This document shows positions 15,124-27,884 of a DNA stretch of 64,000 nt, piece by piece. A program made the translations under genes and the position numbers. Numbering within the stretch: the stretch's first letter is position 1; each line of letters begins with the position of its first letter. Under the pieces are notes generated by a model that was not told the origin of the DNA, ran no database searches, and saw only the letters and a list, made by a program, of their open reading frames with translations. This stretch comes from a virus, in IMG/VR virus record IMGVR_UViG_3300011113_000747, positions 32,001 to 96,000 of that record. One strand, written 5' to 3'.

Positions 15124-15172
15124 GTTTTGGTCATTTCAACTTGCATTTTGAAAAATAGATAAATATTTGCAT

Positions 15173-15949: not shown

Positions 15950-16599
15950 TTACCACTTGTAGGTTGTTTACCAACAGGAGCTGCAGTATCATTTACTGGT
16001 CCTTGTACCGGAGCCACTTCTTGCTCTTTAAGTTGTTCCGCAGTTATTTCTAATTGTTTTTGTTGAACTGCAGCTTCTTGAGTAAGATATGTTTTAACTA
16101 ACTCTTCTGCTGTCTCTAAATTTGTTGTGGTAAGCATACCATGATCAACAAATTTAGGATTTACATATATTGCAGAGTTTTTTTCATGTTCAAACACTTC
16201 TACTTTTTCCACCCAACGAAGTCCTCCGAAACGTTTCTCTAAGAAATCAGTCGCAATATTAAAGCATAATTCTGCAGTACGTTCAATACCAACACCTTTT
16301 TCAAAAATACGAAGATCAATTACACCCTTTTCGTGTAACTGTCTAAAATCTTCTAAAAACGGATCATCTTGAGCTACACAAAATGTATGATCAAAAATTG
16401 TATTGAGTGTATTTTTAAGTTCGTCAAGATCACCAAAATCGACAACCCAATTACGATTATCGAGAAAATCTCCTCCGAAATAAAATTTAGCTTTTAATTC
16501 ATAACCGTGAATTTTTGAACAATGACTAGTCGTTGCTCTCCACTGACGAAATGCACACGAACCCAAACTAATTAACTTTGTTGATTGATATAATCCCAT
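15913..16599 (-). CDS. queD: 6-carboxytetrahydropterin synthase with C-terminal extension
   Basis: CAFRQW..HCSKIHGY, WVVDFG, FDHT, VEVFEHEKNSA. Confidence 0.85.
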   Translation of the reverse strand: MGLYQSTKLISLGSCAFRQWRATTSHCSKIHGYELKAKFYFGGDFLDNRNWVVDFGDLDELKNTLNTIFDHTFCVAQDDPFLEDFRQLHEKGVIDLRIFEKGVGIERTAELCFNIATDFLEKRFGGLRWVEKVEVFEHEKNSAIYVNPKFVDHGMLTTTNLETAEELVKTYLTQEAAVQQKQLEITAEQLKEQEVAPVQGPVNDTAAPVGKQPTSGNYSGLFAGTRWG

Positions 16600-16740
16600 A
16601 TTAATAATTATAACGTTTTATTTTTGGGTTTCAACTTTTTTTTTTATTCTCTTATTTATTTAATATTATATATCACCAAAAATCAACTGACTTTTTTTAA
16701 CTTTTTTTCTTGAACATTTAAAAAAAGATGCCATATTATA

Positions 16741-17352
16741 ATGTATATGAGTCAAAAATACGATTTAATTGCAGCTGAAGAAGCTTATGGTAAATTTTTA
16801 GAGGCTTTAGGCTTCGATTGGAAAAATAATCCGCATATGGAAGATACCCCACATCGAGTTGCTAAAGCTTGGGTGCATGATCTTGCAAGAGGTTGTTTTG
16901 AAAACGAACCAAAGATTACAGCATTTGAAAACGATGGTCAGTATGATGGTATGGTTTGTCAAACAAACATTCCAGTAATCAGTATGTGTGCACATCATAA
17001 TCTTCCTTTTATGGGTTATGCTCACGTTGCATACATTCCATCTCCAGATGGTAAAGTGATTGGTCTTTCGAAATTGAATCGAATTGTCGATTATATTTCT
17101 CGTCGTCCTTCTGTGCAAGAAACTTTGAATATGGACATTCATAAGTTCATTGATAAAGTTTGCTCTAATAATAAAGGTGTTGCAGTTATGGTTGAAGCAA
17201 ATCATACTTGTTGCTCTTTGCGTGGTATTAAGCAGAATTCAACAATGAGAACAGCTCGTATGTCTGGTTCATTTCATGAGCTTGGAGATAATAGCCGAAA
17301 TGAATTCTATAAATTTATTGAATTTGCACAAAATAGTCGGTCGTTAGTTTAA
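16741..17352 (+). CDS. folE: GTP cyclohydrolase I
   Basis: DTPHRVAK, SMCAHHNLPF, GLSKLNRIV, EANHTCCSLRG. Confidence 0.93.
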   Translation: MYMSQKYDLIAAEEAYGKFLEALGFDWKNNPHMEDTPHRVAKAWVHDLARGCFENEPKITAFENDGQYDGMVCQTNIPVISMCAHHNLPFMGYAHVAYIPSPDGKVIGLSKLNRIVDYISRRPSVQETLNMDIHKFIDKVCSNNKGVAVMVEANHTCCSLRGIKQNSTMRTARMSGSFHELGDNSRNEFYKFIEFAQNSRSLV

Positions 17353-17368
17353 GGAAATATTATATAAT
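17353..17368 (+). promoter_or_regulatory. GGAAA-N5-TATAAT promoter
   Basis: One of nine identically spaced copies; 6 nt before the ATG at 17375. Confidence 0.6.
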
Positions 17369-17374
17369 TCGGTT

Positions 17375-17911
17375 ATGAATATTTTTGTAACCGATGAAGA
17401 TCCTGTTGTATCAGCAATTAATCTTTGTGATCAACATGCAAGATCTAAAATGATTATCGAGTCCTGCATTATGCTACAAAACGCATTTTCGCAGGACTCG
17501 CTTTCTCATGAATCATGCCCTCGAACTAAAACAGGTCGAGTACGCAGACGAGGTAAAGGGTATGCAAAACATCAGTGCACTCTTTGGACGATTGAATCGC
17601 AATCTAATTTCGAATGGTTGCTTGAACATGCTCTTGCAATGGTTGATGAACGAAACTTCAGATGGCCTAATAGTCCAGAACATTTTAGTGTATCGTTTTT
17701 AAAATGGTGTAAGGAAAATCGGTATAATACGATTATTGAAAGAAAAGGTTTAACACCATTTACTGTTGCGATAAGTCAAGATAGTGAATGCCGTCAGATC
17801 AAAGCTTTCAATAAGCTCTCTGTTATTGATCAATATAGACAATATATTGTCCATGACAAAGACTTCGCAACCTGGACAAAAAGAAAAAAGCCTTTTTGGT
17901 ATGGAAAATAA
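17375..17911 (+). CDS. Pyrimidine-dimer DNA glycosylase (DenV) family-like protein
   Basis: MNIFV.DEDP..SA..LCDQH..KM..ESCIML, HQCTLW, YRQY, W.KR.KP.W. Confidence 0.65.
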   Translation: MNIFVTDEDPVVSAINLCDQHARSKMIIESCIMLQNAFSQDSLSHESCPRTKTGRVRRRGKGYAKHQCTLWTIESQSNFEWLLEHALAMVDERNFRWPNSPEHFSVSFLKWCKENRYNTIIERKGLTPFTVAISQDSECRQIKAFNKLSVIDQYRQYIVHDKDFATWTKRKKPFWYGK

Positions 17912-18062
17912 GCTCAGCTAATATAAATAAAATTAGATGAACCATAATGTCACATACCTCAATACAGGCGCCTTTAGTAAAGGTTGCGAGGGGTATGATT
18001 GGTCTAATCCGATGCCGCAACGAATTTCGAAAAGATAATTTAAGAAAAGAAGTTGAAGTAAA

Positions 18063-18078
18063 GGAAAAAGACTATAAT
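18063..18078 (+). promoter_or_regulatory. GGAAA-N5-TATAAT promoter at the head of the tRNA array
   Basis: ggaaa aagac tataat. Confidence 0.6.
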
Positions 18079-18266
18079 ATAAAGACATAACACAAAAGGT
18101 TCACGACGAGGGATGACCAAAACAGCCCAAGAGCTCGCAGAATGCGACGTAAAGCGAAAAGCTGACAGTGATATAAAGTATTGAAATAAAATAAAGCATA
18201 TGGGTTAGTAATGCAAATTGCATGAGGCTCCCCCGGTGTAGCCACCACAAGCCATGAATTTCAAAA

Positions 18267-18341
18267 GGCTGCTTAGCTGAGATAGATTAGCGTCTGCCTG
18301 AAGAGCAGAATAGACTGGAGCGTTACCAGTAGCAGCCACCA
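18267..18341 (+). tRNA. tRNA-Phe(GAA)
   Basis: GGCTGCT/AGCAGCC acceptor; TCTGC-CTGAAGA-GCAGA; T-loop AGCGTTA; encoded CCA. Confidence 0.85.
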
Positions 18342-18409
18342 TTTTTAGTTGGAGAACTGATCCTTCAGACTTTCGGTGATCTGAAGCAAAGAAAACACCG
18401 TACAATTTC

Positions 18410-18498
18410 GGGACCTGCCCCCATCAATGGACTGTAAATCCATTGCCATTAATAAGATGGGAAGTTGGCAAGTGGTGCGTTACCACCAGGGCCCACCA
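18410..18498 (+). tRNA. tRNA-Tyr(GTA)-like, lacking a D-arm
   Basis: GGGACCT/AGGGCCC; ATGGA-CTGTAAA-TCCAT; T-arm GTGG-TGCGTTA-CCAC; ACCA. Confidence 0.65.
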
Positions 18499-18504
18499 TT
18501 TCAA

Positions 18505-18591
18505 GTTGGAGACATCGCGCTGTGTTGTCTTTAAAACGCTAACCAACAAGAACAAACCAGTCGTGTCTGCTGGTATAGAAAAAGACACACA
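18505..18591 (+). ncRNA. Candidate pseudoknotted RNA element
   Basis: GTTGG/CCAAC stem; its loop TGTGTTGTCTTT is complementary to downstream AAAGACACACA; intervening ACCAG/CTGGT hairpin. Confidence 0.4.
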
Positions 18592-18592
18592 T

Positions 18593-18685
18593 GGAGAGAG
18601 TCCGGCTAGACGAGGAGCAATCTTGGAAAGATTGTAGACGCAGCTCTGCTGGGTCTGGTGGGTGCGAGTCCCCCTCTCTCCTCCA
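18593..18685 (+). tRNA. tRNA-Ser(GGA)
   Basis: GGAGAGA/TCTCTCC; CAATC-TTGGAAA-GATTG; long variable arm; T-loop TGCGAGT. Confidence 0.85.
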
Positions 18686-18691
18686 TTTTCT

Positions 18692-18781
18692 GGGTAGTTA
18701 ACTAGACAAGCGCGCTAGGACCGACTTGAAATCGGATCGAGGTGTAAAAGCCTTGGGGTGCAAGCCCTCAGCTGCCCGCCA
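18692..18781 (+). tRNA. tRNA-Ser(TGA)
   Basis: GGGTAGT/GCTGCCC; CCGA-CTTGAAA-TCGG; variable arm; GCCA. Confidence 0.85.
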
Positions 18782-18787
18782 TTTTTT

Positions 18788-18862
18788 GCGGATATAATTC
18801 AGTGGTAGAATATCTCGTTGCCAACGAGAGTGTCGTCGGTTCAAATCCGACTATCCGCTCCA
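18788..18862 (+). tRNA. tRNA-Gly(GCC)
   Basis: Canonical cloverleaf; CTCGT-TGCCA-ACGAG; TCCA. Confidence 0.92.
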
Positions 18863-18871
18863 TTTTCAAAA

Positions 18872-18946
18872 GCGGTGTAGATGTTAATGGCTGCACACCT
18901 GACTTCCAATCAGAAGGAGGGGGTTCGATTCCCCCACACCGCACCA
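18872..18946 (+). tRNA. tRNA-Gly(TCC)
   Basis: GCGGTGT/ACACCGC; CTGA-CTTCCAA-TCAG; GGTTCGA. Confidence 0.9.
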
Positions 18947-18953
18947 ATTTTAA

Positions 18954-19030
18954 CGGGATGTAGCTCAGCCTGGTAGAGCGCTTGCTTTGGGAGCAAGATG
19001 TCGTCGGTTCGAATCCGGCTATCCCGACCA
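18954..19030 (+). tRNA. tRNA-Pro(TGG)
   Basis: Canonical; CTTGC-TTTGGGA-GCAAG. Confidence 0.92.
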
Positions 19031-19035
19031 TTTAT

Positions 19036-19128
19036 GGAGAGTTAACTGGACAAGCGCGCCAGGGATGTTTGCTAAACATCACGCACTTCCCTCAGAGGTG
19101 TGCGGGGCAGGACCGCAGCTCTCCTCCA
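19036..19128 (+). tRNA. tRNA-Ser(GCT)
   Basis: GATGT-TTGCTAA-ACATC; variable arm; T-loop GGCAGGA. Confidence 0.85.
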
Positions 19129-19136
19129 TTTTTATT

Positions 19137-19213
19137 CGGGTGGTGTCTGGACAAGTAAACGAGCTCGGTTTGGATCCGAGTATATGTGGGAGCGTTACCC
19201 ACTCACCCGACCA
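19137..19213 (+). tRNA. tRNA-Pro(TGG), second divergent copy
   Basis: CGGGTGG/TCACCCG; CTCGG-TTTGGAT-CCGAG; T-loop AGCGTTA. Confidence 0.8.
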
Positions 19214-19223
19214 ATTTCAAAAA

Positions 19224-19312
19224 TCCCCCTTAGCTCAGTGGTAGAGCGCTTGGCTGTTAACCAGGAGGCCCTTATAAGGTATAGCGACGATCGTAACGTC
19301 GAGGGGGAGCCA
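19224..19312 (+). tRNA. tRNA-Asn(GTT) with long variable arm
   Basis: TCCCCCT/AGGGGGA; CTTGG-CTGTTAA-CCAGG; variable hairpin CCTTATAAGG; T-arm CGACG-ATCGTAA-CGTCG. Confidence 0.8.
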
Positions 19313-19321
19313 ATTTCAAAA

Positions 19322-19407
19322 GCAGGTGTGGGTCAATTGGTTGACCAACAGACTTTTAATCTGTGCGAGTAATCGCTATGTGGGTTCGAGTCCCATCGCC
19401 TGCACCA
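19322..19407 (+). tRNA. tRNA-Lys(TTT) with long variable arm
   Basis: ACAGA-CTTTTAA-TCTGT; variable arm GCGA-GTAA-TCGC; canonical T-arm. Confidence 0.85.
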
Positions 19408-19416
19408 ATTTCAAAT

Positions 19417-19493
19417 ATCCGGCCATGTTCCAAGGCTAGGCGACGCGGACTCCAAATTTGCGTGGGTCAGTTCAATTCTGACGCCGGATGCCA
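19417..19493 (+). tRNA. tRNA-Trp(CCA)
   Basis: ATCCGGC/GCCGGAT; GCGGA-CTCCAAA-TTTGC. Confidence 0.8.
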
Positions 19494-19501
19494 TTTCAAA
19501 T

Positions 19502-19577
19502 GCCCCATTAGTATAACGGACAGAACACTCGGCTACGAACCGAGAGAAGGTAGGTTCAATTCCTCCATGGGGTACCA
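19502..19577 (+). tRNA. tRNA-Arg(ACG)
   Basis: GCCCCAT/ATGGGGT; CTCGG-CTACGAA-CCGAG. Confidence 0.9.
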
Positions 19578-19580
19578 TTT

Positions 19581-19655
19581 CGCGCAATGGTGTAAGGTAA
19601 AGCACGCTGGCCACACTGGCGCCAGAGGAAGGGTGAAAAGCCTGATGCGCAACCA
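19581..19655 (+). pseudogene. Degenerate tRNA-like unit, anticodon not readable
   Basis: GCGCA/TGCGC acceptor, D-arm-like TGGTGTAAGGTAAAGCAC, CTGGC/GCCAG arm with a 9-nt loop, 3' ACCA. Confidence 0.5.
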
Positions 19656-19663
19656 TTTCAAAT

Positions 19664-19742
19664 GCTCCAGAAGCTACAGTAGACGGGCAGCTGGCTCTTA
19701 ACCAGAAGATTCGTGTGGTTGCAACTACCACCTGGAGTACCA
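19664..19742 (+). tRNA. tRNA-Lys(CTT)
   Basis: GCTCCAG/CTGGAGT; CTGG-CTCTTAA-CCAG; T-loop TGCAACT. Confidence 0.85.
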
Positions 19743-19752
19743 ATTTCAAAAA

Positions 19753-19829
19753 GCCCCGGTAGCATAACTGGTAACTGCAGCAGTCTCAAACACTGAAGAG
19801 TGTCGGTTCGAATCCGACTCGGGGTACCA
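19753..19829 (+). tRNA. tRNA-Leu(CAA) with short variable loop
   Basis: CAGT-CTCAAAC-ACTG; 5-nt variable loop; canonical T-arm; A73. Confidence 0.8.
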
Positions 19830-19834
19830 ATTAA

Positions 19835-19921
19835 GGAAGCACCAGCTGAGATGGACGCTCTGCGGAGAAGTGTTACTTGTGCAAGAAAGCTAAACGAACG
19901 CTTTCCAGCTGACTTCCACCA
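19835..19921 (+). ncRNA. CCA-ended tRNA-like small RNA
   Basis: GGAAG/CTTCC plus CAGCTG/CAGCTG closing stems, internal hairpins, 3' ACCA followed by the array spacer ATTTCA. Confidence 0.5.
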
Positions 19922-19928
19922 ATTTCAT

Positions 19929-20027
19929 GGGAGTGTGAAGCCAAAGGCTAGGCTAGTGGTTCGATTCCACTTTAATTGCTGGTGCACTCGACGGAGCAAG
20001 AGGGTTCGAATCCCTTCACTTCCACCA
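19929..20027 (+). tRNA. tRNA-Ser(CGA) with extra-long variable arm (99 nt)
   Basis: GGGAGTG/CACTTCC; AGTGG-TTCGATT-CCACT; TTGCT/AGCAA variable arm; A73. Confidence 0.75.
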
Positions 20028-20036
20028 ATTTCAAAT

Positions 20037-20120
20037 GGGCTTGTGGATAACCAGAAACAGCAGAATGGCTCGGCTTAAACCCGATGATCCTTGAGGGTGC
20101 AACTCCCTTCAAGCCTACCA
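20037..20120 (+). tRNA. tRNA-Leu(TAA), enlarged D region, short variable loop
   Basis: GGGCTTG/CAAGCCT; TCGG-CTTAAAC-CCGA; T-loop TGCAACT. Confidence 0.75.
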
Positions 20121-20128
20121 ATTTCAAT

Positions 20129-20205
20129 GCCCTGGTAGCATAACTGGCAACTGCGTCTGACTTAGGATCAGAAGAATGGGGGTTCGAATCCCTCTCAGGG
20201 TACCA
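20129..20205 (+). tRNA. tRNA-Leu(TAG) with short variable loop
   Basis: TCTGA-CTTAGGA-TCAGA (G37); D-arm nearly identical to Leu(CAA). Confidence 0.85.
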
Positions 20206-20213
20206 ATTTCAAA

Positions 20214-20288
20214 GGCCTATAAGCATAGATAGCGATGTATCCGTTTTGTAGTCGGAATAGGAGTGCGCAAGTCACTCATGGGCCTCCA
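20214..20288 (+). tRNA. tRNA-Thr(TGT)
   Basis: GGCCTAT/ATGGGCC; TCCG..TTTGTAG..CGGA; T-loop CGCAAGT. Confidence 0.8.
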
Positions 20289-20294
20289 TTTTAT

Positions 20295-20369
20295 TACCCT
20301 CTAGTGTAATGGTTAACACACCTGACTTTGACTCAGGTAGTCCTCGTTCGAATCGAGGGAGGGTAGCCA
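20295..20369 (+). tRNA. tRNA-Gln(TTG)
   Basis: TACCCTC/GAGGGTA; CCTGA-CTTTGAC-TCAGG. Confidence 0.9.
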
Positions 20370-20379
20370 ATTTTCAAAT

Positions 20380-20442
20380 GGGGTGTCCTGTGCCGCCTAG
20401 CAGGGTAATGGAAAATCTTGGGCTAACCTCCACATTCCACCA
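20380..20442 (+). ncRNA. 63-nt CCA-ended mini tRNA-like RNA
   Basis: GGGGTGT/ACATTCC acceptor-like stem plus ACCA; only two internal hairpins. Confidence 0.45.
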
Positions 20443-20451
20443 ATTTCAAAT

Positions 20452-20529
20452 AACCCTATCGTATAGTCTGGTTGAGTATGTCTGTCTCTGAAACAGAAGG
20501 CCCTGGTTCAAATCCAGGTAGGGTTGCCA
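20452..20529 (+). tRNA. tRNA-Gln(CTG)
   Basis: AACCCTA/TAGGGTT; TCTGT-CTCTGAA-ACAGA. Confidence 0.88.
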
Positions 20530-20551
20530 ATTTCAAACAACAAACACAAAC

Positions 20552-20833
20552 ATGTGGCCAAGCATTAATAATTTTAAAATCTTATCACCAAAAGAAAAAT
20601 GTATAGCTGCATTTCATTATTGGGTTGAAACACAAACAGATGGTAGTGTTTCTTGGAGACATGCAAATACATGTACAACTTCTCTAACACAAAAGCAGCA
20701 GATGCATTATAGAAAATATTATGAAGTGCTTCATGCAATTAGGTTTGTTATTCATACTGAACGCTATGATTTGCTAATTTCTGAGCATCAAGCATTGAAT
20801 GCTCTCAATGATGGCAACAATGTTTTAGTTTAG
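20552..20833 (+). CDS. Hypothetical protein inserted in the tRNA array
   Basis: 93 aa AT-rich ORF filling the gap between tRNAs. Confidence 0.55.
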   Translation: MWPSINNFKILSPKEKCIAAFHYWVETQTDGSVSWRHANTCTTSLTQKQQMHYRKYYEVLHAIRFVIHTERYDLLISEHQALNALNDGNNVLV

Positions 20834-20839
20834 TAAAAA

Positions 20840-20914
20840 TGCTCTCGGGAGGTAAGGATCTCGGACCGTCTCATAAGCGGTGTTAAGTGGGTGCAATCCC
20901 CACGGGAGCGACCA
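20840..20914 (+). tRNA. tRNA-Met(CAT), elongator Met or Ile2 not distinguishable
   Basis: TGCTCTC/GGGAGCG; ACCGT-CTCATAA-GCGGT; T-loop TGCAATC. Confidence 0.8.
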
Positions 20915-20920
20915 ATTTAA

Positions 20921-20936
20921 GGAAATACGATATAAT
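20921..20936 (+). promoter_or_regulatory. GGAAA-N5-TATAAT promoter (internal to array)
   Basis: ggaaa tacga tataat. Confidence 0.6.
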
Positions 20937-20957
20937 AATAGAGTAATAAATTTAAAA

Positions 20958-21035
20958 GTCCCTGTAGTTAACGGAAGGCTATAACATCGCCCTTTCACGG
21001 CGAAATACCCGGTTCGACCCCGGGTGGGGATGCCA
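20958..21035 (+). tRNA. tRNA-Glu(TTC)
   Basis: TCGCC-CTTTCAC-GGCGA; GGTTCGA. Confidence 0.88.
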
Positions 21036-21044
21036 ATTTCAAAT

Positions 21045-21118
21045 GACCCTGTAGATTAATAGTAAATCGCCACGCTTTCAACGTGAAGACGACGGAGCAT
21101 AACCGTCCTGGGTTGCCA
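21045..21118 (+). tRNA. tRNA-Glu(TTC), second divergent copy
   Basis: CACG-CTTTCAA-CGTG; T-loop AGCATAA. Confidence 0.8.
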
Positions 21119-21127
21119 ATTTCAAAT

Positions 21128-21205
21128 AGAGCCGAAGTCAAACAGCATTGACGCTCGCCTGTCGAGCGAGATATAAAGTGGGGGCAGCACCCATCGGCTC
21201 TGCCA
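21128..21205 (+). tRNA. tRNA-Asp(GTC)
   Basis: AGAGCCG/CGGCTCT; CTCGC-CTGTCGA-GCGAG; T-loop GGCAGCA. Confidence 0.82.
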
Positions 21206-21213
21206 ATTTCAAT

Positions 21214-21289
21214 CCTTCTGTAGCTGAGTGGTTTTTAGCAGCGTCTTGATAAGGCGCAGACGTAGGTTCAATTCCTACCAGAAGGACCA
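21214..21289 (+). tRNA. tRNA-Ile(GAT)
   Basis: CCTTCTG/CAGAAGG; GCGTC-TTGATAA-GGCGC. Confidence 0.9.
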
Positions 21290-21297
21290 ATTTCAAA

Positions 21298-21373
21298 AGC
21301 CCTATAGCCCAACAGCAGAGGCAATACGTTAAGGGCGTATTCAGTGCAGGTGCAAATCCTGCTAGGGGTACCA
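21298..21373 (+). tRNA. tRNA-Leu(AAG) with short variable loop
   Basis: ATACG-TTAAGGG-CGTAT (A34, G37); T-loop TGCAAAT; one acceptor-stem mismatch. Confidence 0.72.
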
Positions 21374-21378
21374 ATTTT

Positions 21379-21561
21379 ATGAAAATAATTGTCAACACAG
21401 AACAAGAAAAGATTGCTTTATTAAAAGCTTCAAAATACATTCATGATCTAAAATGTTTAGATACAAGCGATGATGCTGTTAATACAATAGCTCATTTGTA
21501 TTGTGCACCATTTTTAATTGAAGTTGATCCTAATTTAAAAATTTCAGTTGAACAACAATAG
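21379..21561 (+). CDS. Hypothetical protein inserted in the tRNA array
   Basis: 60 aa AT-rich ORF between tRNAs. Confidence 0.5.
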   Translation: MKIIVNTEQEKIALLKASKYIHDLKCLDTSDDAVNTIAHLYCAPFLIEVDPNLKISVEQQ

Positions 21562-21576
21562 GAAAGAGTATATAAT
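21561..21576 (+). promoter_or_regulatory. GGAAA-N5-TATAAT promoter
   Basis: TTGAAC-17 nt-TATAAT with GGAAA in the spacer. Confidence 0.65.
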
Positions 21577-21593
21577 ATTGTTGTAGATAAAAA

Positions 21594-21669
21594 TCCCAAG
21601 TAGCTCAGCGGTAGTAGCGAGTGGCTGTTAACCACTAGGTCGCTGGTTCGATCCCAGCCTTGGGAGCCA
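21594..21669 (+). tRNA. tRNA-Asn(GTT), canonical copy
   Basis: TCCCAAG/CTTGGGA; AGTGG-CTGTTAA-CCACT. Confidence 0.92.
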
Positions 21670-21679
21670 TTTTCAAAAT

Positions 21680-21753
21680 TGCAGGTAGGTGGTCTAGTGA
21701 CCATTCTGGGCTCATAACCCGGAGAGCGTGGTGCGATTCCCGGCCTGTTACCA
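21680..21753 (+). tRNA. Initiator tRNA-fMet(CAT)
   Basis: GGG/CCC anticodon stem around CTCATAA; 1:72 mismatch; T-loop TGCGATT. Confidence 0.8.
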
Positions 21754-21761
21754 ATTTCAAT

Positions 21762-21837
21762 GCCCGGTTAGCTCAGCGGTAGTAGCACCGCCTTTACACG
21801 GCGACTGTCGCAGGTTCAATCCCTGCACCGGGTACCA
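21762..21837 (+). tRNA. tRNA-Val(TAC)
   Basis: CGCC-TTTACAC-GGCG; canonical. Confidence 0.9.
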
Positions 21838-21843
21838 GTTTAT

Positions 21844-21919
21844 GGGGCCATAGCACAATTGGTAGTGCACCTGCTTTGCAAGCAGAAGGTTACCGGTTCG
21901 ACTCCGGTTGGCTCCACCA
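21844..21919 (+). tRNA. tRNA-Ala(TGC)
   Basis: GGGGCCA/TGGCTCC with G3:U70; CTGC-TTTGCAA-GCAG. Confidence 0.92.
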
Positions 21920-21929
21920 ATTTCTAAAT

Positions 21930-22025
21930 GATCGGCGTCTGAAAAGGTAAGAGAAACCTCTCCCACTGCAAACGTTAGCAGATGAAGTTTTGAGCTTTCA
22001 TAACGACGAGTATACCTGGTCACCA
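21930..22025 (+). ncRNA. CCA-ended multibranch small RNA
   Basis: GATCGG/CTGGTC plus ACCA; CGTC/GACG inner stem enclosing three hairpins. Confidence 0.5.
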
Positions 22026-22030
22026 ATTTC

Positions 22031-22170
22031 AGAACATTCAATCAACCGCAACACAGAGGTCGATCTTGCAAGCCGAGTACCTCTGACGGCTCTGATAACA
22101 GGTGCGCTTGCACGAGCCTTGCGAATGGTTCTGCATGCACCAGCTGAATTAGCTACTCAGTGTGGTGCTA
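22031..22170 (+). ncRNA. Candidate structured RNA
   Basis: AGAACATTC/GAATGGTTCT, CGCAA/TTGCG, CAGAGG/CCTCTG, GGCTC/GAGCC, then a GCACCA/TGGTGC hairpin. Confidence 0.45.
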
Positions 22171-22201
22171 AATTTTTTAATTAACTATAATAAATATTAA
22201 C

Positions 22202-22660
22202 ATGAAAAAAGATTTAAAACTCATTGCAGAAGCTTATAACAAGGTTATTATTGAACAAATAACTGATGATTGGTTTCAACAAGGAGCATTTCAAGCTTAT
22301 AAAAAGCCAGCAAAAGAACCATATCAAGTTGCAAAGCAAGATGGTGTGTTACAGACCTTAGAAGGACCACAACAATACAAAGCTGGTTTTTATATTATTA
22401 CAGGACCGAAAGGTGAAAAATATTCGATGCCTCCAGAAAAATTCAATGAATTAAAAGATGATAACGGGGATGGTACAGCTTCACCTAAAAAAATTATTAA
22501 GCAAGTAAAATTAGCTGATTCAGATGGTGTTGTAAAAACTTCATGGGGAGCTGATTTACAATATAAGTCTGGGGAAGATTATATTGTTAAACATGGTCCG
22601 GGTGATTATGGTGTGGTAAAGAAAGATATTTTTCAGCAAACATACGTATCCGAACAATAA
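22202..22660 (+). CDS. PGDYG-motif protein (duplicated domain)
   Basis: HGPGDYGVVKKDIFQQTY; two similar halves; TAAATA at 22191. Confidence 0.75.
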   Translation: MKKDLKLIAEAYNKVIIEQITDDWFQQGAFQAYKKPAKEPYQVAKQDGVLQTLEGPQQYKAGFYIITGPKGEKYSMPPEKFNELKDDNGDGTASPKKIIKQVKLADSDGVVKTSWGADLQYKSGEDYIVKHGPGDYGVVKKDIFQQTYVSEQ

Positions 22661-22670
22661 ATTTTTCAAT

Positions 22671-22745
22671 GCGCAATGAGCCAGCTGGCGTAGGCAGCGG
22701 TCTGCAAAATCGCTTAGTAGGGTTCGATTCCCTAATTGCGCTCCA
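22671..22745 (+). tRNA. tRNA-Cys(GCA)
   Basis: GCGCAAT/ATTGCGC; GCGGT-CTGCAAA-ATCGC; U73. Confidence 0.9.
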
Positions 22746-22770
22746 ATTCTAGTACGCGTATCCGGCGCTA

Positions 22771-22836
22771 GGCTCGTCGCTGGTTAATTCTAGACATCTG
22801 AGATTCCAAATTTCAGATGAAGTTAACGGGCCGCCA
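22771..22836 (+). ncRNA. Long hairpin ending in GCCA
   Basis: GGCTCG/CGGGCC, GTTAA/TTAAC and CATCTGA/TCAGATG stacked stems. Confidence 0.4.
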
Positions 22837-22858
22837 ATTTTTTTAGTTGAATTAGATA

Positions 22859-22874
22859 GGAAATATCTTATAAT
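22859..22874 (+). promoter_or_regulatory. GGAAA-N5-TATAAT promoter
   Basis: TTGAAT-16 nt-TATAAT with GGAAA in the spacer. Confidence 0.65.
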
Positions 22875-22897
22875 AAAGGTGTAAACAAACAACAAAA

Positions 22898-22980
22898 GCC
22901 CCGGTAGCGGATCCGCCTTCTAAGCGGAGCATTGTACCGTAATTGGACGCATACAGGTTCGAGTCCTGTTCGGGGTACCA
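22898..22980 (+). tRNA. tRNA-Arg(TCT)-like, lacking a D-arm
   Basis: GCCCCGG/TCGGGGT; 7-nt linker; TCCGC-CTTCTAA-GCGGA; CGT-AATTGG-ACG hairpin; ACAGG-TTCGAGT-CCTGT; ACCA. Confidence 0.7.
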
Positions 22981-22990
22981 TTTTTCAAAA

Positions 22991-23067
22991 TCCCTGCGTA
23001 TCATAATTAGTTAATGTCCTCGCCTGTGAAGCGAGCTAAGACGGGGCAGAACCGTCCCAGGGAACCA
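22991..23067 (+). tRNA. tRNA-His(GTG) without G-1/C73
   Basis: CTCGC-CTGTGAA-GCGAG; T-loop GGCAGAA; discriminator A. Confidence 0.78.
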
Positions 23068-23074
23068 TTTCATC

Positions 23075-23362
23075 ATGACAACCACACGCAAAGATAAAAT
23101 TTTAGTTTTCCAACACAAAATAACTAATTTATATTTAGCAGTATGGCGTGAGCCGGGATCAACTTCTTATTTTTGGACATATGATGTTAATGATGCTATG
23201 CAGTCAAATGTATGGGATGAAAATCATGCAATTTTTCAGAACATTGAAAAGGCAGACCCTGCAAAATATTTTGACCCCATGAGAAGCAATGAAATTAAAG
23301 ATTGCAAACTTGTAATGTTTGAAAAAGAGTCTACAATCAATTACAAACAAATTTCATCATGA
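23075..23362 (+). CDS. Hypothetical protein
   Basis: 95 aa ORF; ATGA overlap with the next ORF. Confidence 0.6.
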   Translation: MTTTRKDKILVFQHKITNLYLAVWREPGSTSYFWTYDVNDAMQSNVWDENHAIFQNIEKADPAKYFDPMRSNEIKDCKLVMFEKESTINYKQISS

Positions 23363-23706
23363 CAACATCAACAATCATCAATGAAGATTATGCAATGGAG
23401 CTTACGATGTTGCATCGTTACAGAGACCTTTCAGATGGTCTTTCGGTAATAGAATTTGATTGCAACTTTGATTGGTATCATGGTGATCATTGTCCAAAGT
23501 TTGATTTGAGTCTGAGATTATTCAATTGGACTATTTTTGAGTTTAACATCTACAACAGACATCATGTTGTAGATGAAATAGGCGATGTTTTATTGCCTTG
23601 GGCAAAACAAGATTTTGAAGAATCAGACAAAGCTTTTATAGAGCTTGTAAAAAATTCCGGAATAGTTGCAAACGAGGGTTCGAAACCTCCAGTAGCATCT
23701 AACTGA
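23359..23706 (+). CDS. Hypothetical protein
   Basis: 115 aa ORF, translationally coupled to the previous one. Confidence 0.6.
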   Translation: MTTSTIINEDYAMELTMLHRYRDLSDGLSVIEFDCNFDWYHGDHCPKFDLSLRLFNWTIFEFNIYNRHHVVDEIGDVLLPWAKQDFEESDKAFIELVKNSGIVANEGSKPPVASN

Positions 23707-23940
23707 GATTCAAAGCATCGAAGTTTATAGGTTTGAACGACGGGTTGTTGGCCCGGTAGGTGTGTTCGAGTGCACACGTGCTTTGAGTCTCGACAATTCA
23801 TCTGGCTGTTGCAATGAGGTAAAGACCCAACGCAATGCCAAATAGTCCAAAAAGTAAGAGTAAAATATTCATAAGGGCTGCATTTCAAAACTATGGCAAA
23901 GCTTTTGCTATAGCGATGAAAATTGCAGCAATGCAAAAAA
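23705..23940 (+). ncRNA. Candidate structured RNA with a tRNA-like cloverleaf closed by a 13-bp stem
   Basis: GAGATTCAAAGCA/TGCTTTGAGTCTC encloses three hairpins including GTGTG-TTCGAGTG-CACAC; further long hairpins follow. Confidence 0.55.
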
Positions 23941-23996
23941 ATCCAAGAAACATGTGGATTATCTCAAGGAAGTTCATATAGTTATTTATTCAAAAT

Positions 23997-24084
23997 GCTG
24001 GTGTGGCTGAGCGGCCTAAAGCACTAGTTTTGTAAACTAGCGGGAGTGATCCCATCGTCAGTTCGAATCTGACCACCAGCTCCA
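23997..24084 (+). tRNA. tRNA-Thr(TGT) with long variable arm and class II-type D-arm
   Basis: GCTGGTG/CACCAGC; GGCTGAGCGGCCTAAAGC; CTAGT-TTTGTAA-ACTAG; GGGA-GTGA-TCCC. Confidence 0.88.
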
Positions 24085-24090
24085 TCTTCC

Positions 24091-24270
24091 ATGAACAATC
24101 GCAGATCATTCTTCAAAAGACTCATTGGCTTAATCGCTGCACCAAAGGTTGCGAAAGCAACACACTCAAGCAACATAGTCAAAATGTGGACACCTGAAAC
24201 AGGTGTTACATATGGTGAGTATATTCATCCAGGCATTTGTATTAAACAAATTGACAAAACGGGGAGTTAG
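24091..24270 (+). CDS. 59 aa protein with a twin-arginine-like N-terminus
   Basis: Manual translation MNNRRSFFKRLIGLIAAPKVAKA...; stop overlaps the tRNA-Val 5' end. Confidence 0.5.
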   Translation: MNNRRSFFKRLIGLIAAPKVAKATHSSNIVKMWTPETGVTYGEYIHPGICIKQIDKTGS

Positions 24271-24334
24271 TATAGAAGCAGTACATTGGCTCGACACGCC
24301 AAAGAAGAAGGAGCGTTACCTTCACTCCCTACCA
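24261..24334 (+). tRNA. tRNA-Val(GAC)
   Basis: GGGGAGT/ACTCCCT; TTGGC-TCGACAC-GCCAA (C33); T-loop AGCGTTA. Confidence 0.8.
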
Positions 24335-24345
24335 TAAATATATTC

Positions 24346-24828
24346 ATGAAGTTTGATGATGTTGTAAACGAAGCACTTTCACGTCTTTCGCCTGTAAAAC
24401 TATATAGAGGAGCTGAACCAGATGAGGATCCTTCGAGTGAAGTAGAAAGACCTTGGGCCCAAGGTCGTGAATTAGATTTTCGTGCTGCATTTATGAAAGG
24501 AGATGTTGATGAAGTTATCAGCATGCTGCGTAAGCATGCTGGTGATTCTGGTGTAAGAGCAAAAGGTATAAAGTCATATTCTTTGAATAGAGATGTAGCA
24601 AAAGAGTTTATTTTCGACAAAGGTATAATTAAAGAATTAGATATACCCGCTAAAAACATAATTTCATCAAGACAAAGACTACAAACAATTTTATCTTTAC
24701 CTGATCAACAAAAACAGCAACTGCTCGATCAGGGTGTAGGATTCAACGTTAATAGATTGCTTTCCAAATATAAATTTGCTGCATCTGATCCAGATACAGA
24801 GCAAGAAATAATGATTTACAAAAAGTAA
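24346..24828 (+). CDS. Putative ADP-ribosyltransferase (R-S-E type)
   Basis: LYRG, SYSLNRDVAKEF, EQEIMI. Start moved to ATG 24346 because the track start lies inside the tRNA; TAAATA at 24335. Confidence 0.6.
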   Translation: MKFDDVVNEALSRLSPVKLYRGAEPDEDPSSEVERPWAQGRELDFRAAFMKGDVDEVISMLRKHAGDSGVRAKGIKSYSLNRDVAKEFIFDKGIIKELDIPAKNIISSRQRLQTILSLPDQQKQQLLDQGVGFNVNRLLSKYKFAASDPDTEQEIMIYKK

Positions 24829-24906
24829 GCCAACTATCGCTCCACCCGACAGATAGCTTTGCATGACGGTGCAAATGACCCTGAAAATCGCAAGGAGCAA
24901 AATCAT

Positions 24907-24981
24907 GGTTTCTAAGCATAGACAGCGATGCACACGATTGGTATTCGTGATAGAGGAGCGCAAATCTCCTAGGAGCCTCCA
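24907..24981 (+). tRNA. tRNA-Thr(GGT)
   Basis: GGTTTCT/AGGAGCC; CACGA-TTGGTAT-TCGTG; T-loop CGCAAAT. Confidence 0.82.
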
Positions 24982-25001
24982 TTTTTCAGTGGAACCTTAA
25001 A

Positions 25002-25017
25002 GGAACTACGTTATAAT
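25002..25017 (+). promoter_or_regulatory. GGAAC-N5-TATAAT promoter variant
   Basis: ggaac tacgt tataat, just upstream of ORF 25022. Confidence 0.55.
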
Positions 25018-25021
25018 AAAA

Positions 25022-26071
25022 GTGAAGTTAAAACAAAAACTAAACTTAAAACATATGACAGAAACGTTAGAACAACTCAAAGAAACAGTCAAAAGCCATA
25101 CCATTGTGCCTTTTAGCGCACGTAATATTGCTTGCGAAAAAAATACACTCATTATCAATGACCGATATGTTGTTGATCAACCAAAGAAAGTTCTCGAGAC
25201 TCTAGGTATTCGAGATAATCTCATCAAGGAAATTTTTGATAAACCTGATGTTAATTGGGGCGCCATTCGTGATGCTCTTAATACTATCGATGATAAAAAG
25301 TCTTTTGGTGGTATTGTGGATAAAAACAACCGCATGCTTAATCTCACTAAGGCTGTAAAAGAAGAAACTCAGCTTGACTTTGATAAGCGTCTTGATGAGC
25401 TTTTTAATGCTATTGATGGTAGCCAAAGTAATGAACTTCAGAGTGCAATTTGGAGTCCAAGTGATTGTGCAGTTCATGTCAATTCTATTAATCGCTCAAG
25501 TGATATTGATTGCGGTGCTGGTGATATTTGGAAGTTTGGTACAACTACTATCATTGGAGACGCTATGCAACAGTTCAAGAATTATTTTCTTCGTCTAGTC
25601 TGCACAAACGGTATGACCACACGAGATAACATTGCATATCGAGCTGCTACAGCTTCTGTTAATATTGCTAAGCAGTTTGTGAAGTTTGCTAGCGATGGTG
25701 CTTTTGCAAATCAAATTACCCCTCGTGTTAATCGTCTTCGCAACAATCGAGCTTCTCTTTATGAGCTTACCTCTGTTGCTGATTGTCTTAACGCAGAACA
25801 GCGTGATACGTTTATGCCTGAATATGGCTATACCGTTGAACACTTTAAGAACGCTGGTCACCCAGTCGACGGCTTCTCAGCAGCTCGTAAGAAATTTGTT
25901 TATACAAATGAAAATCTTTATGATGTCTTTAATGTTGCAACCAATCTCGCAACACATCAGCGCGATGTGATCGGTGATGCTGCAGCAATGAGGCTCAATA
26001 AGGTTGCTGGTGAAATCTTCTCAAAAGGTCCGAATCTTGATATTCAGATTTTAGATCTTTGGAAGAACTAA
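25022..26071 (+). CDS. DUF932-like protein
   Basis: YFLRLVCTNGM motif; 349 aa. Confidence 0.55.
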   Translation: MKLKQKLNLKHMTETLEQLKETVKSHTIVPFSARNIACEKNTLIINDRYVVDQPKKVLETLGIRDNLIKEIFDKPDVNWGAIRDALNTIDDKKSFGGIVDKNNRMLNLTKAVKEETQLDFDKRLDELFNAIDGSQSNELQSAIWSPSDCAVHVNSINRSSDIDCGAGDIWKFGTTTIIGDAMQQFKNYFLRLVCTNGMTTRDNIAYRAATASVNIAKQFVKFASDGAFANQITPRVNRLRNNRASLYELTSVADCLNAEQRDTFMPEYGYTVEHFKNAGHPVDGFSAARKKFVYTNENLYDVFNVATNLATHQRDVIGDAAAMRLNKVAGEIFSKGPNLDIQILDLWKN

Positions 26072-26078
26072 AAACTTC

Positions 26079-26123
26079 GGTGGGTAACTAGTACATAAAA
26101 AATATTAGTTACCCACCAAAAAA
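26079..26123 (+). terminator. Inverted repeat / probable terminator
   Basis: GGTGGGTAACTA...TAGTTACCCACC 12-bp stem after the stop codon. Confidence 0.6.
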
Positions 26124-26138
26124 TAGTAGATTTATAAA

Positions 26139-26154
26139 GGAAAGTAGCTAAAAT
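26139..26154 (+). promoter_or_regulatory. GGAAA-N5-TAAAAT promoter
   Basis: TAGATT-16 nt-TAAAAT with GGAAA; precedes the 350-nt structured region. Confidence 0.55.
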
Positions 26155-26160
26155 AAATAC

Positions 26161-26510
26161 ATAAGAGCGACAAAAAGCTCGATGATCTTTGATAAATTCC
26201 GTGGTGGCAGAACAATGGGTCGCCAGCCCATAATGCACTAAGCAACGTCTGAAAAGACGCCAGGTAGGTTGAAAAAGTTATGCCGGATAAAGCTGAAATA
26301 ACCAAGATTGGTCAAATCTTGAGTGACGTAAGAAGACAACAAATCGTTATTATACGACTGATGGCTGTATTGTCTTGGAGGTAACCATTCCTCTCTATCA
26401 TTAACAATGAGAGTAATTAACTCATTGGATAGTGGCTGAATAATCCGACATAATGGAGACTTGTGAGTAGTCAGGAATCTCACCCACACTAATTTCTCTC
26501 GCAAGAGAAT
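26161..26510 (+). ncRNA. Candidate large structured ncRNA or structured leader
   Basis: Many short hairpins (GAGC/GCTC, ATGGG/CCCAT, CGTC/GACG, CAAGATT/AATCTTG, TCGT/ACGA, TCATT/AATGA, TTCTC-TCGCAA-GAGAA); no credible + strand ORF. Confidence 0.55.
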
Positions 26511-26531
26511 AGAAAGGAAACACACATACAC

Positions 26532-26747
26532 ATGAATAAAAACGCATATGAAATCAGGCTAGATGTTCTTGGTATGGCTCATGGTACTATCATGAATCAA
26601 TACCACGAAAAGATTGGTCAGCTTCGCGATAATGCAAATCGTACAAATCATCAGTTTGATGTTGAGCTTATTGATAAGCTTATGCCGAAAACGGCAGACA
26701 TCATTGCTTATGCAAACGAATTGTATTCCTTCGTAGAAGGCAAATAG
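26532..26747 (+). CDS. Conserved phage hypothetical protein
   Basis: NAYEIRLDVL.MA motif; AAAGGA SD upstream. Confidence 0.7.
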   Translation: MNKNAYEIRLDVLGMAHGTIMNQYHEKIGQLRDNANRTNHQFDVELIDKLMPKTADIIAYANELYSFVEGK

Positions 26748-26797
26748 AGTCAAAGTGGTGCTGGATAACCACATTAAACACCAGTAAATATATACAT

Positions 26798-26893
26798 GCT
26801 CCAGTAGCTCAATTGGTAGAGCGGAAGGCTTATACCCTTCGTATGCACCAGATTAGTGCGCGGTTGTCGGTTCGAGCCCGGCCTGGAGTACCA
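26798..26893 (+). tRNA. tRNA-Ile(TAT) with long variable arm
   Basis: GCTCCAG/CTGGAGT; GAAGG-CTTATAC-CCTTC; GCAC-CAGATTA-GTGC variable arm. Confidence 0.85.
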
Positions 26894-26899
26894 ATTTTC

Positions 26900-27343
26900 G
26901 GGGGCGTTCTGGTTTCGACTCAATTGGTTGAATCAAGTTCGCATGCAGAGGTAGACTAGCTGGCCTCTATAAAAGCAAGTCAAAAAACATAAACGCAGAA
27001 GACACTGAAGTCGATGCCCTCTTAGCACAAGCTGAGTACATCTTCAACAACGCTGACGAATTCGTCACCGCTGATGTTGAAGAAGCTCTCTTTGCCTAAG
27101 CAAAAACAGAAATGGATCCTATTAAAATTTCTGAGGTAACCAATAGGTTGAGCTGAACAATGTATGCTCTTAAATCAAACATTGGGGTGACCTCGGACTC
27201 TTCACCGAAGTAGGTAGGCTCTAAAACTTAGGTTGATACGCCATGCAAACCTGTTGCCAATGAAATTGCAAATGTATCTAAGCATGTAGACAACTTAGCT
27301 GATACTATTGAACACAGGGGTTCGACTCCCCTCGCCTCCACCA
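26900..27343 (+). ncRNA. ssrA: tmRNA
   Basis: GGGGGCG...GGTTTCGAC 5' end; GGGGTTCGACTCCCC-TCGCCTCCACCA 3' end with G3:U; tag frame 26995-27099 after ATAAAC. Confidence 0.95.
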
Positions 27344-27362
27344 TTTTAGAATAAATAAAGAC

Positions 27363-27884
27363 ATGTACCAGCTGTTTTTAGACGATGAACGTATGCCAGA
27401 AGATGTATTTTGGATTAACATTCCAAAAGGAGATTACGTTATCGTGCGTACTGCAGAACAATTTAAGCAGTATATTCAAGAACATGGATTACCTTCACAT
27501 GTTTCATTTGATCATGACTTAGGGGATGATCCTAATGGTTATGACTGCGCAAAGTGGTTAGTAAACTATTGCATTGAAACAGATCAAAAGTTTCCATCAT
27601 ATACAGTACACTCTCAAAACCCAATCGGTAAAGATAACATCATTGGATATATTGATAATTACAAACGAGTGTATGGTGAAAGTGCAAAGCTAACATTCGA
27701 GCAATACTTTTATATCACTGAAAAGAAAAAGAGTATTCATGACCCTGTAAGACCAGGTATACTCAAGAGACAAACAAAGGGTAAGATGACTTGCTCGAAA
27801 GCGAGAGCGTTAAAGTCTAAGCAGAAGAACAAAGGTAATAATACAGCTAAAGCTGCTCAACGCTACCTAAACTATCATTGTTAA
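27363..27884 (+). CDS. Cyclic-phosphate-processing receiver-domain protein with a basic C-terminal extension
   Basis: LFLDDER, SFDHDLG, GYDCAKWL, VHSQNPIG. Confidence 0.7.
   Translation: MYQLFLDDERMPEDVFWINIPKGDYVIVRTAEQFKQYIQEHGLPSHVSFDHDLGDDPNGYDCAKWLVNYCIETDQKFPSYTVHSQNPIGKDNIIGYIDNYKRVYGESAKLTFEQYFYITEKKKSIHDPVRPGILKRQTKGKMTCSKARALKSKQKNKGNNTAKAAQRYLNYHC

Follow-up and report, generated by a model that had tools for sequence, protein, structure and literature searches.

The stretch of DNA analysed here, 64,000 nucleotides referred to below as the window, corresponds to bases 32001-96000 of a complete phage record of IMG/VR (IMGVR_UViG_3300011113_000747; 184,542 bp, with direct terminal repeats). 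This phage has a GC content of 35% and about 40 tRNA genes, and a dense tRNA array spans approximately 18.2-27.4 kb of the window. Within the array, four genes with class I anticodons, Asn(GUU), Lys(UUU), Thr(UGU) and Ile(UAU), each have a stem-loop variable arm longer than 10 nt, as a first-pass annotation had noticed, and both ARAGORN and Rfam RF00005 (gathering score) agree with it. The arms are of two kinds, both real and conserved: that of tRNA-Ile(UAU), with G-A-U at the apex of its loop, and the hairpins of Lys, Thr and Asn. The four genes and their extra hairpins (stem-loop-stem) are:

19224..19312, + strand: tRNA-Asn(GUU), 89 nt, ARAGORN, Rfam 35.3 bits, G73
19268-19280: extra hairpin of Asn, GCC-CTTATAA-GGT (alternative CCT-TATA-AGG)
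19322..19407, + strand: tRNA-Lys(UUU), 86 nt, ARAGORN, Rfam 60 bits, A73, canonical D and T loops
19365-19376: extra hairpin of Lys, GCGA-GTAA-TCGC
23997..24084, + strand: tRNA-Thr(UGU), 88 nt, ARAGORN, Rfam 58.6 bits, U73, class II-type body
24042-24053: extra hairpin of Thr, GGGA-GTGA-TCCC
26798..26893, + strand: tRNA-Ile(UAU), 96 nt, ARAGORN, Rfam 55.9 bits, A73
26845-26859: extra hairpin of Ile, GCAC-CAGATTA-GTGC, its GAU at 26851-26853

In all four genes the acceptor stem has 7 bp, the T stem has 5 bp and the CCA is encoded, and U33 and A37 are kept. The minimum free energy fold of Lys and Thr is a five-arm cloverleaf (z of -3.3 and -3.4, respectively, equalled by none of 200 shuffles), and the centroid structure of Ile is a cloverleaf with an extra arm. 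In the class II tRNAs (Leu, Ser, Tyr, Sec) a hairpin likewise stands between the anticodon and T arms; here, by contrast, the anticodons are those of class I, the arms are shorter (3-4 bp) and the D stems of Asn, Lys and Ile have 4 bp. The class I D stem is directly visible in the ARAGORN drawings of Asn and Ile; for Lys the program draws 3 bp, but at least GGTC/GACC is paired according to both its sequence and its minimum-energy fold. Thr(UGU) is alone among the four in having a 3-bp D stem (GCT/AGC) with an enlarged, Ser-like D loop (GAGCGGCCTAA). This D arm, rightly recognized by the first-pass annotation as being of Ser/Leu/Tyr type, is class II in type and differs by one base from that of tRNA-Ser(GCU) in a related phage (L022), and it goes together with a Thr-type acceptor, G1-C72, C2-G71 and U73, as in the short phage Thr tRNAs. 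The long Asn gene has near-identical copies in three relatives (L384, L392 and L038), and its 5' half is nearly identical to that of canonical phage Asn tRNAs. Short-arm twins had been reported for both Asn(GTT) and Thr(TGT). The former is a canonical gene; the latter turns out to be merely a degenerate tRNA-like unit, with a 7/7 acceptor stem and the loop TTTGTAG, whose anticodon stem contains a U.U mismatch, whose T loop is non-canonical and which neither ARAGORN nor Rfam calls:

21594..21669, + strand: short-arm tRNA-Asn(GUU), canonical, ARAGORN, Rfam 60.9 bits
20214..20288, + strand: degenerate tRNA-like unit with UGU loop, from our own acceptor-stem and loop scan

Ile(UAU) belongs to a large family. 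Between its D and T arms the window gene has two hairpins: the main anticodon arm, GAAGG-CTTATAC-CCTTC, with a 5-bp stem (GAAGG/CCTTC) and a loop that fits the family loop CUUAUA(A/C), and then a side arm of the form shared by the family, a stem of 3-5 bp with G-A-U at the loop apex, separated from the T stem by a linker (GCGGTT) of the usual 5-6 nt. At least 229 distinct sequences of this kind were gathered from phages and mobile bacterial tRNA arrays. Relatives were found by anchoring on the open reading frame 27363-27884; the open reading frame 25022-26071, used as an anchor, retrieved none, and among cultured phages a megablast with the entire tRNA region returned generic tRNA-Pro matches only. 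In the anchored loci a long tRNA(TAT) is present in five more lineages, the side-arm stem varying (GGCC/GGCC, GGAT/ATCC, CGT/ACG) and the loop remaining constant. Scanning IMG/VR with the loop motif imposed gave, among the matches listed, more than 100 distinct tRNA(TAT) of 88-96 nt. A rescan meant to remove the bias of that motif, which prescribed the anticodon loop, the T loop and their spacing and left the side loop free, found GAT at the apex of the hairpin loop in 120 of 123 distinct long tRNA(TAT), and in loci chosen without any TAT pattern the arm is present on 9 of 11 tRNA(TAT). All four pairs of the side-arm stem covary: given 20 sequences less than 72% identical, RNAalifold finds the helix again, counts 11, 8, 4 and 1 double changes in it and has GAT as invariant. 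Read as seven nucleotides, the side loop begins with a pyrimidine, followed by A, less often by U, G or C, and its last two positions are free; in several sequences the side loop is, letter for letter, the CTGATAA of the anticodon loop in ordinary tRNA-Ile(GAU). U33 and A37 are constant in the UAU loop, and A73 is present in all 154 family sequences that end in CCA. Finally, 5 or 6 unpaired bases follow the side hairpin on its 3' side in 108 of the 123, as in a class I variable loop, whereas class II tRNAs have 1-2 unpaired bases after their variable hairpin.

Cultured phages carry this design. Synechococcus phage SynMITS9220M01 has a GAU-arm copy annotated simply as tRNA-Ile, and unannotated copies are present in DSL-LC02 and Aeromonas phage 1233. 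In bacterial assemblies GAU-arm Ile(UAU) genes are common and, among the matches listed, most lie within arrays of 10-38 tRNA genes (per 8 kb); a few solitary genes are found in Rhodobacterales, Pseudoxanthomonas and Planctomycetota. The carriers of arrays are Acidobacteriota, Acidithiobacillus and others, where the GAU-arm tRNA is a regular member of what has been described as L-arrays (PMC8421152) or tRNA array units (PMC4758250); the portions of these two articles reached by term searches mention neither a UAU/TAT tRNA nor an extra variable arm. Array gene order is conserved in many Acidobacteriota (Pyrinomonadaceae, Terriglobales; L239-L358). In the phage itself, a long-arm tRNA-Leu(UAA) (G000:C1:171887-171979) has the same acceptor stem as Ile(UAU), GCTCCAG/CTGGAGT, with A73 and nearly the same T arm, which suggests duplication or recombination between the two genes.

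The conservation of GAU next to a UAU anticodon has to be seen against the way isoleucine tRNAs are charged. The isoleucyl-tRNA synthetase (IleRS) of Escherichia coli charges a tRNA with a UAU anticodon poorly, the wobble base being read by a Trp in the Zn-binding domain (PMC3575796), and the strong Ile determinants are the anticodon and A73 (PMC9976931). We infer from the sequences that the Ile arm likely gives IleRS the determinant lacking in UAU: the canonical anticodon arm would decode AUA, the side arm would supply the enzyme with G34 A35 U36, and the molecule could read AUA without TilS. Because a mobile element cannot alter the IleRS of its host, a GAU side arm would be a coherent solution, and such a supply of GAU would explain why the arm is tied to the UAU anticodon. 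The TilS-independent tRNA-Ile(UAU) of Mycoplasma mobile (Taniguchi et al., 2013; PMC3575796) and a suppressor tRNA-Ile(UAU) of Bacillus subtilis (PMC3919564) likewise read AUA without lysidine, with the same poor recognition by IleRS. These are, however, ordinary class I molecules, and in M. mobile the problem is solved by a changed enzyme, the synthetase itself being altered at Arg865 (PMC3575796), whereas the window tRNA has a second, GAU hairpin, in a family carried by phages and mobile arrays that are unable to change the host enzyme. No match to PF00133, PF00152 or PF00587, the aminoacyl-tRNA synthetase families whose catalytic cores cover the Ile, Lys, Asn and Thr enzymes, was found in the phage, so that charging of the four tRNAs is presumably left to the cognate synthetases of the host. 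Two further roles of the side arm were considered and rejected. For pairing of GAU within the same tRNA (with the A-N-U-C of the T loop, the D loop or the main anticodon loop), the segments considered as partners either lack complementarity or change from sequence to sequence with no corresponding change in GAU. For the side arm as the true decoder, position 2 of its loop is usually A, not U, positions 6-7 are free, and it is the UAU loop that always has U33 and A37.

The arms of Lys, Thr and Asn have a different make-up. Those of Lys and Thr are capped by GNRA tetraloops, which match no anticodon, and anticodon mimicry was rejected for them. A scan for Lys(UUU) with a GNRA hairpin brought up 35 phage contigs, where about 25 distinct long-arm Lys(UUU) have unrelated acceptor stems and covarying arm stems; in the lineage of the window itself, a compensatory change turns GCGA/TCGC into GTGA/TCAC (L384 and L392). 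The Thr arm is identical in L011, where the anticodon stem has changed with compensation, and homologues sharing the T arm have GGA-GTAA-TCC (L368) or CTC-AAAA-GAG (L126). To appreciate how these arms are distributed, tRNAs from 236 phage loci were clustered at 80% identity and counted as long from 82 nt upwards, which gave long-arm clusters for Asn(GUU) in 6 of 38 cases, for Thr(UGU) in 6 of 37 and for Lys(UUU) in 4 of 35. Together, the three isoacceptors reach 16/110, as compared with 17/645 for the other class I anticodons excluding UAU (odds ratio 6.3, Fisher p = 2e-6), a figure that is indicative only, the sample containing the window and its relatives and coming from loci picked for other tRNAs. 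Long-arm Lys(CUU) genes with GTGA-GAAA-TCAC are present in other phages (L374, L375, L382, L378, L388, L391), and L382 also has a long-arm Ile(GAU) of 86 nt with GGC-GAAA-GCC. The Asn hairpin, kept in L038, L384 and L392, can be read in two ways: as GCC-CUUAUAA-GGU, with a 7-nt loop that is the exact consensus of the UAU anticodon loop of the Ile family, or as the palindrome CCU-UAUA-AGG. The match to an anticodon loop may be due to chance or may have a meaning.

The three isoacceptors that bear these arms are the targets of the PARIS nuclease AriB: in Lys(UUU), Thr(UGU) and Asn(GUU) its cut falls between positions 40 and 41, and the enzyme makes contact with the D loop as well (PMC12409363). 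Of the tRNAs Thr(UGU), Lys(UUU), Asn(GUU) and Val(UAC), the first is the one that P2 OLD cuts fastest (PMC12445682). Shielding, which the first-pass annotation had proposed for all four tRNAs, is therefore a plausible reading for three of them, Lys, Thr and Asn: short, stable hairpins placed beside the 3' strand of the anticodon stem would make the phage Lys, Thr and probably Asn tRNAs poor substrates of Toprim-type nucleases (PARIS AriB, P2 OLD) that cut the anticodon stem of these isoacceptors. Enzymes of the AriB/OLD type could be hindered by a helix that projects at three bases from the cut, and translation would go on after the host copies are cleaved. Compared with the E. coli target U36-A-A-U-C/A41 (the slash marking the cut), a reference that may not be that of the host, the bases at the cut site are UAAUC/U in Lys, where only 41 differs, UAAAC/U in Thr and UAACC/A in Asn. 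The codons read by the four long-arm tRNAs (AAA, AAY, ACA, AUA) make up about 166 per 1000 phage codons, being heavily used by this AT-rich genome. As cases in point for phage-encoded tRNAs, T5 neutralises AriB with the same three isoacceptors, Lys(UUU), Thr(UGU) and Asn(GUU) (PMC11464382, PMC12409363), and a phage tRNA-Thr(UGU), an isoacceptor also present in the window, rescues from P2 OLD (PMC12445682). The T5 tRNAs differ in that they carry point changes at the anticodon stem and at the D loop, where those of the window have an added hairpin in the variable region. In common with these cases, the window isoacceptors are encoded by a phage that also has a tRNA-repair-type RNA ligase:

G000:C1:165096-165668, outside the window: T4 Rnl1-type RNA ligase, 65.7 bits, open frame of 398 aa

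The enzyme of T4 repairs tRNAs cleaved by anticodon nucleases.

Long variable arms had been held at the outset to be confined, in bacteria, to Ser, Leu, Tyr and Sec tRNAs. This holds for cells; it does not for phages and mobile tRNA arrays, where arms recur. The putative host phylum was taken to be that of a Verrucomicrobiales metagenome-assembled genome. A strict Lys pattern had a match in just one of four bacterial genomes, a sensitivity too low for the purpose, and it was hence loosened before being applied to 301 genomes of that phylum. Matches were found in 282 of them. What recurs for tRNA-Lys(UUU) is a class I match of 27 nt, its variable loop 5 nt long; matches of greater length are scattered, and a reversed-pattern control also matches in many genomes. 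For Lys, the isoacceptor searched in this way, long arms are thus not common among the tRNAs of these 301 genomes. As for the literature on long variable arms in phages, allo-tRNAs, tRNA-Ile(UAU) and tRNA arrays, neither of the two designs is described in what we covered, a coverage that is incomplete and does not prove novelty.

The genes and their arms, with the conservation, covariation and distribution of the latter among isoacceptors, and the retained cognate features come from the data themselves, and the two mechanisms are our interpretation. Taken together, the four are working phage tRNA genes whose arms are selected add-ons, that of Ile meant for the IleRS determinant and those of Lys, Thr and probably Asn for nuclease escape, a view in which our belief and our doubt are about equal. 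To be sure, besides the composition of the enrichment sample, a series of observations weighs against it. Without refolding of the tRNA or a new mode of binding, it is not obvious how a short variable-region hairpin could get to the anticodon-binding domain of IleRS; the side loop is no full copy of an Ile anticodon loop, since it mostly has A instead of U where position 33 would be and leaves its last two positions free; and A73 is also present in Leu, Val, Met and Lys tRNAs. The anti-PARIS tRNAs of T5 are 75-78 nt long, which rules out long arms on those that were tested, and they escape via substitutions at 16, 39 and 41, resistance to P2 OLD mapping likewise to the anticodon stem (PMC12445682); in neither case is an arm needed. 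Arms are rare in bacterial tRNA arrays (Asn 0/54, Lys 1/56, Thr 2/41). Finally, Asn is the weakest of the four genes, with its 35.3 bits, a non-canonical T loop (ATCGTAA) and a minimum-energy fold that is not a cloverleaf, and its copy in L038 has two mismatches in the acceptor stem. A bolder form of the same view would make the GAU hairpin a portable identity element, with IleRS reading GAU in the side arm and the ribosome reading UAU, and the Lys, Thr and Asn hairpins a general structural means, other than point mutation, of escaping anticodon-stem nucleases; we put this forward as a tentative proposal.

The foremost alternative, rather unlikely in our opinion, is that the arms have no role in identity or defence and are tolerated or mildly stabilising insertions in a solvent-facing region, tetraloops possibly aiding folding or processing. 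Single tetraloop hairpins are indeed present in Gly(UCC), Glu, Arg(ACG), Pro, Cys, Met and His tRNAs of related phages, the phage tolerates many odd tRNA shapes, and the proven anti-PARIS tRNAs work without an arm. Mere tolerance, however, leaves unexplained both the invariance of GAU in 120 of 123 diverged sequences and the concentration of the small arms in three isoacceptors, and the fully canonical D and T loops of Lys and Thr show no evident need for added stabilisation. It is less probable still, and in fact improbable, that the long-arm copies are not mainly decoders, being instead decoys that occupy host nucleases or tRNA-binding defence proteins, or stable regulatory RNAs. The second copy of Asn, and perhaps of Thr(UGU), in the same array would fit this idea, as would the weak Asn gene with its abnormal T loop. 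Yet no other Lys(UUU) or Ile(UAU) gene was found, either by ARAGORN on the phage genome or in our own scan of 18000-27500; all four molecules keep the 7-bp acceptor stem, CCA, U33 and A37; and in the P2 OLD experiments a phage tRNA-Thr rescues by replacing the cut tRNA, not by competition (PMC12445682).

The first-pass annotation had also considered programmed mistranslation, in which the arms would make these tRNAs substrates of the seryl- or leucyl-tRNA synthetases (SerRS, LeuRS) and ANN codons would be deliberately mistranslated. There are precedents in the nematode nev-tRNAs (PMC3333845) and, as a proposal, in the allo-tRNAs (Mukai et al., 2017; PMC5389517), which like the window tRNAs combine a long arm with anticodons outside Leu and Ser, and a long-arm nev-tRNA-Ile(UAU) is charged with Leu in vitro (PMC3333845, PMC4300185). 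The Ser-type D arm of Thr, the G73 that Asn has in common with tRNA-Ser, and the acceptor stem and most of the T arm that Ile(UAU) has in common with Leu(UAA) in this genome would point the same way. The allo-tRNAs, however, have 8/4 or 9/3 acceptor/T stems and Ser identity, when all window tRNAs are 7/5 with cognate features, and the nev-tRNAs are nematode nuclear genes with Leu identity, when the source here is a phage and Leu-type features are not family-wide, the acceptor stem shared with Leu not being a trait of the Ile family. SerRS requires G73, and C2-G71, present in Thr and Asn, is a listed SerRS antideterminant (PMC9976931). Ser identity, made of G73 and a long arm, does not fit the discriminators of the four, which are A in Lys, U in Thr, A in Ile and, in Asn, a G that is also the cognate one. 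Thr has moreover the G1-C72, C2-G71 and U73 of short phage Thr tRNAs, the arms have merely 3-4 bp, Asn, Lys and Ile have class I D stems of 4 bp, and the invariant GAU indicates Ile, not Leu. Mistranslation would also be costly because the codons concerned amount to about 17% of phage codons. With cognate discriminators and acceptor features kept in all four genes, and no allo-tRNA layout, mischarging by SerRS is unlikely because the cognate identity elements are kept, and mistranslation as a whole is disfavoured to the point of being very improbable. That the extra segments are removed as small introns, or that the genes are decaying pseudogenes, as the Asn gene at 35 bits and the L038 copy with its two acceptor-stem mismatches might suggest, is hardly credible, for the hairpin stems covary, which indicates a function of the hairpin itself at the RNA level, diverged copies remain intact by the hundreds, and the introns of bacterial tRNAs belong to group I, measure a few hundred bases and are located in the anticodon loop, unlike 12-25-nt hairpins of the variable region.

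The array that houses the four genes is itself unusual in composition. ARAGORN identifies 21 tRNAs in the window, and Rfam adds further ones together with a gene for transfer-messenger RNA (tmRNA), which begins 6 nt after the CCA of Ile(UAU) and has a reading frame of unusual length. Directly upstream of the array lies a set of genes for 7-deazaguanine or queuosine precursors (14347-17911). Our own scan, which asked for a 7-bp acceptor stem followed by N-CCA and for an anticodon-type loop, adds about 20 tRNA-like units missed by ARAGORN, with perfect acceptor stems, CCA and plausible anticodon loops, and with non-canonical T loops (AGCGTTA, GGCAGGA, TGCAAGC and others, between 18267 and 25000 of the window). 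The neighbouring genes, and examples of the extra units found in our own scan, are:

14347-15123: QueE-like
15913-16599: QueD-like
16741-17352: GTP cyclohydrolase
17375-17911: DNA-binding protein
26900..27343, + strand: phage tmRNA gene, Rfam RF00023, 105 bits
18267-18341: extra unit, Phe
18593-18685: extra unit, Ser GGA
18692-18781: extra unit, Ser UGA
19036-19128: extra unit, Ser GCU
19137-19213: extra unit, second Pro UGG
19664-19742: extra unit, Lys CUU
20840-20914: extra unit, CAU
21128-21205: extra unit, Asp
22991-23067: extra unit, His
24907-24981: extra unit, Thr GGU

Between 18780 and 22030 nearly every tRNA has its CCA encoded, and next to it stands the spacer ATTTCAAA (or ATTTTCAA), which may be an array-wide processing signal. 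At 19929-20027 lies a 99-nt unit whose acceptor stem has 7 bp; it has CCA and two hairpins resembling T arms (GGTTCGATTCC, GGTTCGAATCC), and its Rfam tmRNA match is weak (25.8 bits). Other odd shapes in the phage include a rewired Tyr and Arg(UCU), non-canonical T loops and short-arm Leu. Leu tRNAs with the anticodons CAA, UAG and AAG (19753-19829, 20129-20205 and 21298-21373) are 76-77 nt long and do without the long arm usual in bacterial tRNA-Leu. Counted as distinct genes, short-arm Leu make 23 of 26 CAA, 21 of 45 UAG and 18 of 53 UAA in the first ~170 phage loci; in bacterial tRNA arrays they make 21 of 28 UAA, 27 of 30 UAG and 18 of 19 CAA.

The split between class I and class II tRNAs is treated in bacteria as a fixed rule, on which gene finders and identity models are built. 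Phages and mobile tRNA arrays break this rule systematically and under selection, and a cultured cyanophage, SynMITS9220M01, carries the Ile design. If the small hairpins do block nucleases of the Toprim or PrrC type, they would be a structural counter-defence in the contest over tRNAs between phages and bacteria, and they would help predict which phages evade PARIS-like systems. If the GAU arm works as proposed, it would be a new principle of tRNA identity, with the signals for charging and for decoding placed on separate arms, and it would offer a ready-made tool for orthogonal translation and for decoding AUA without TilS.

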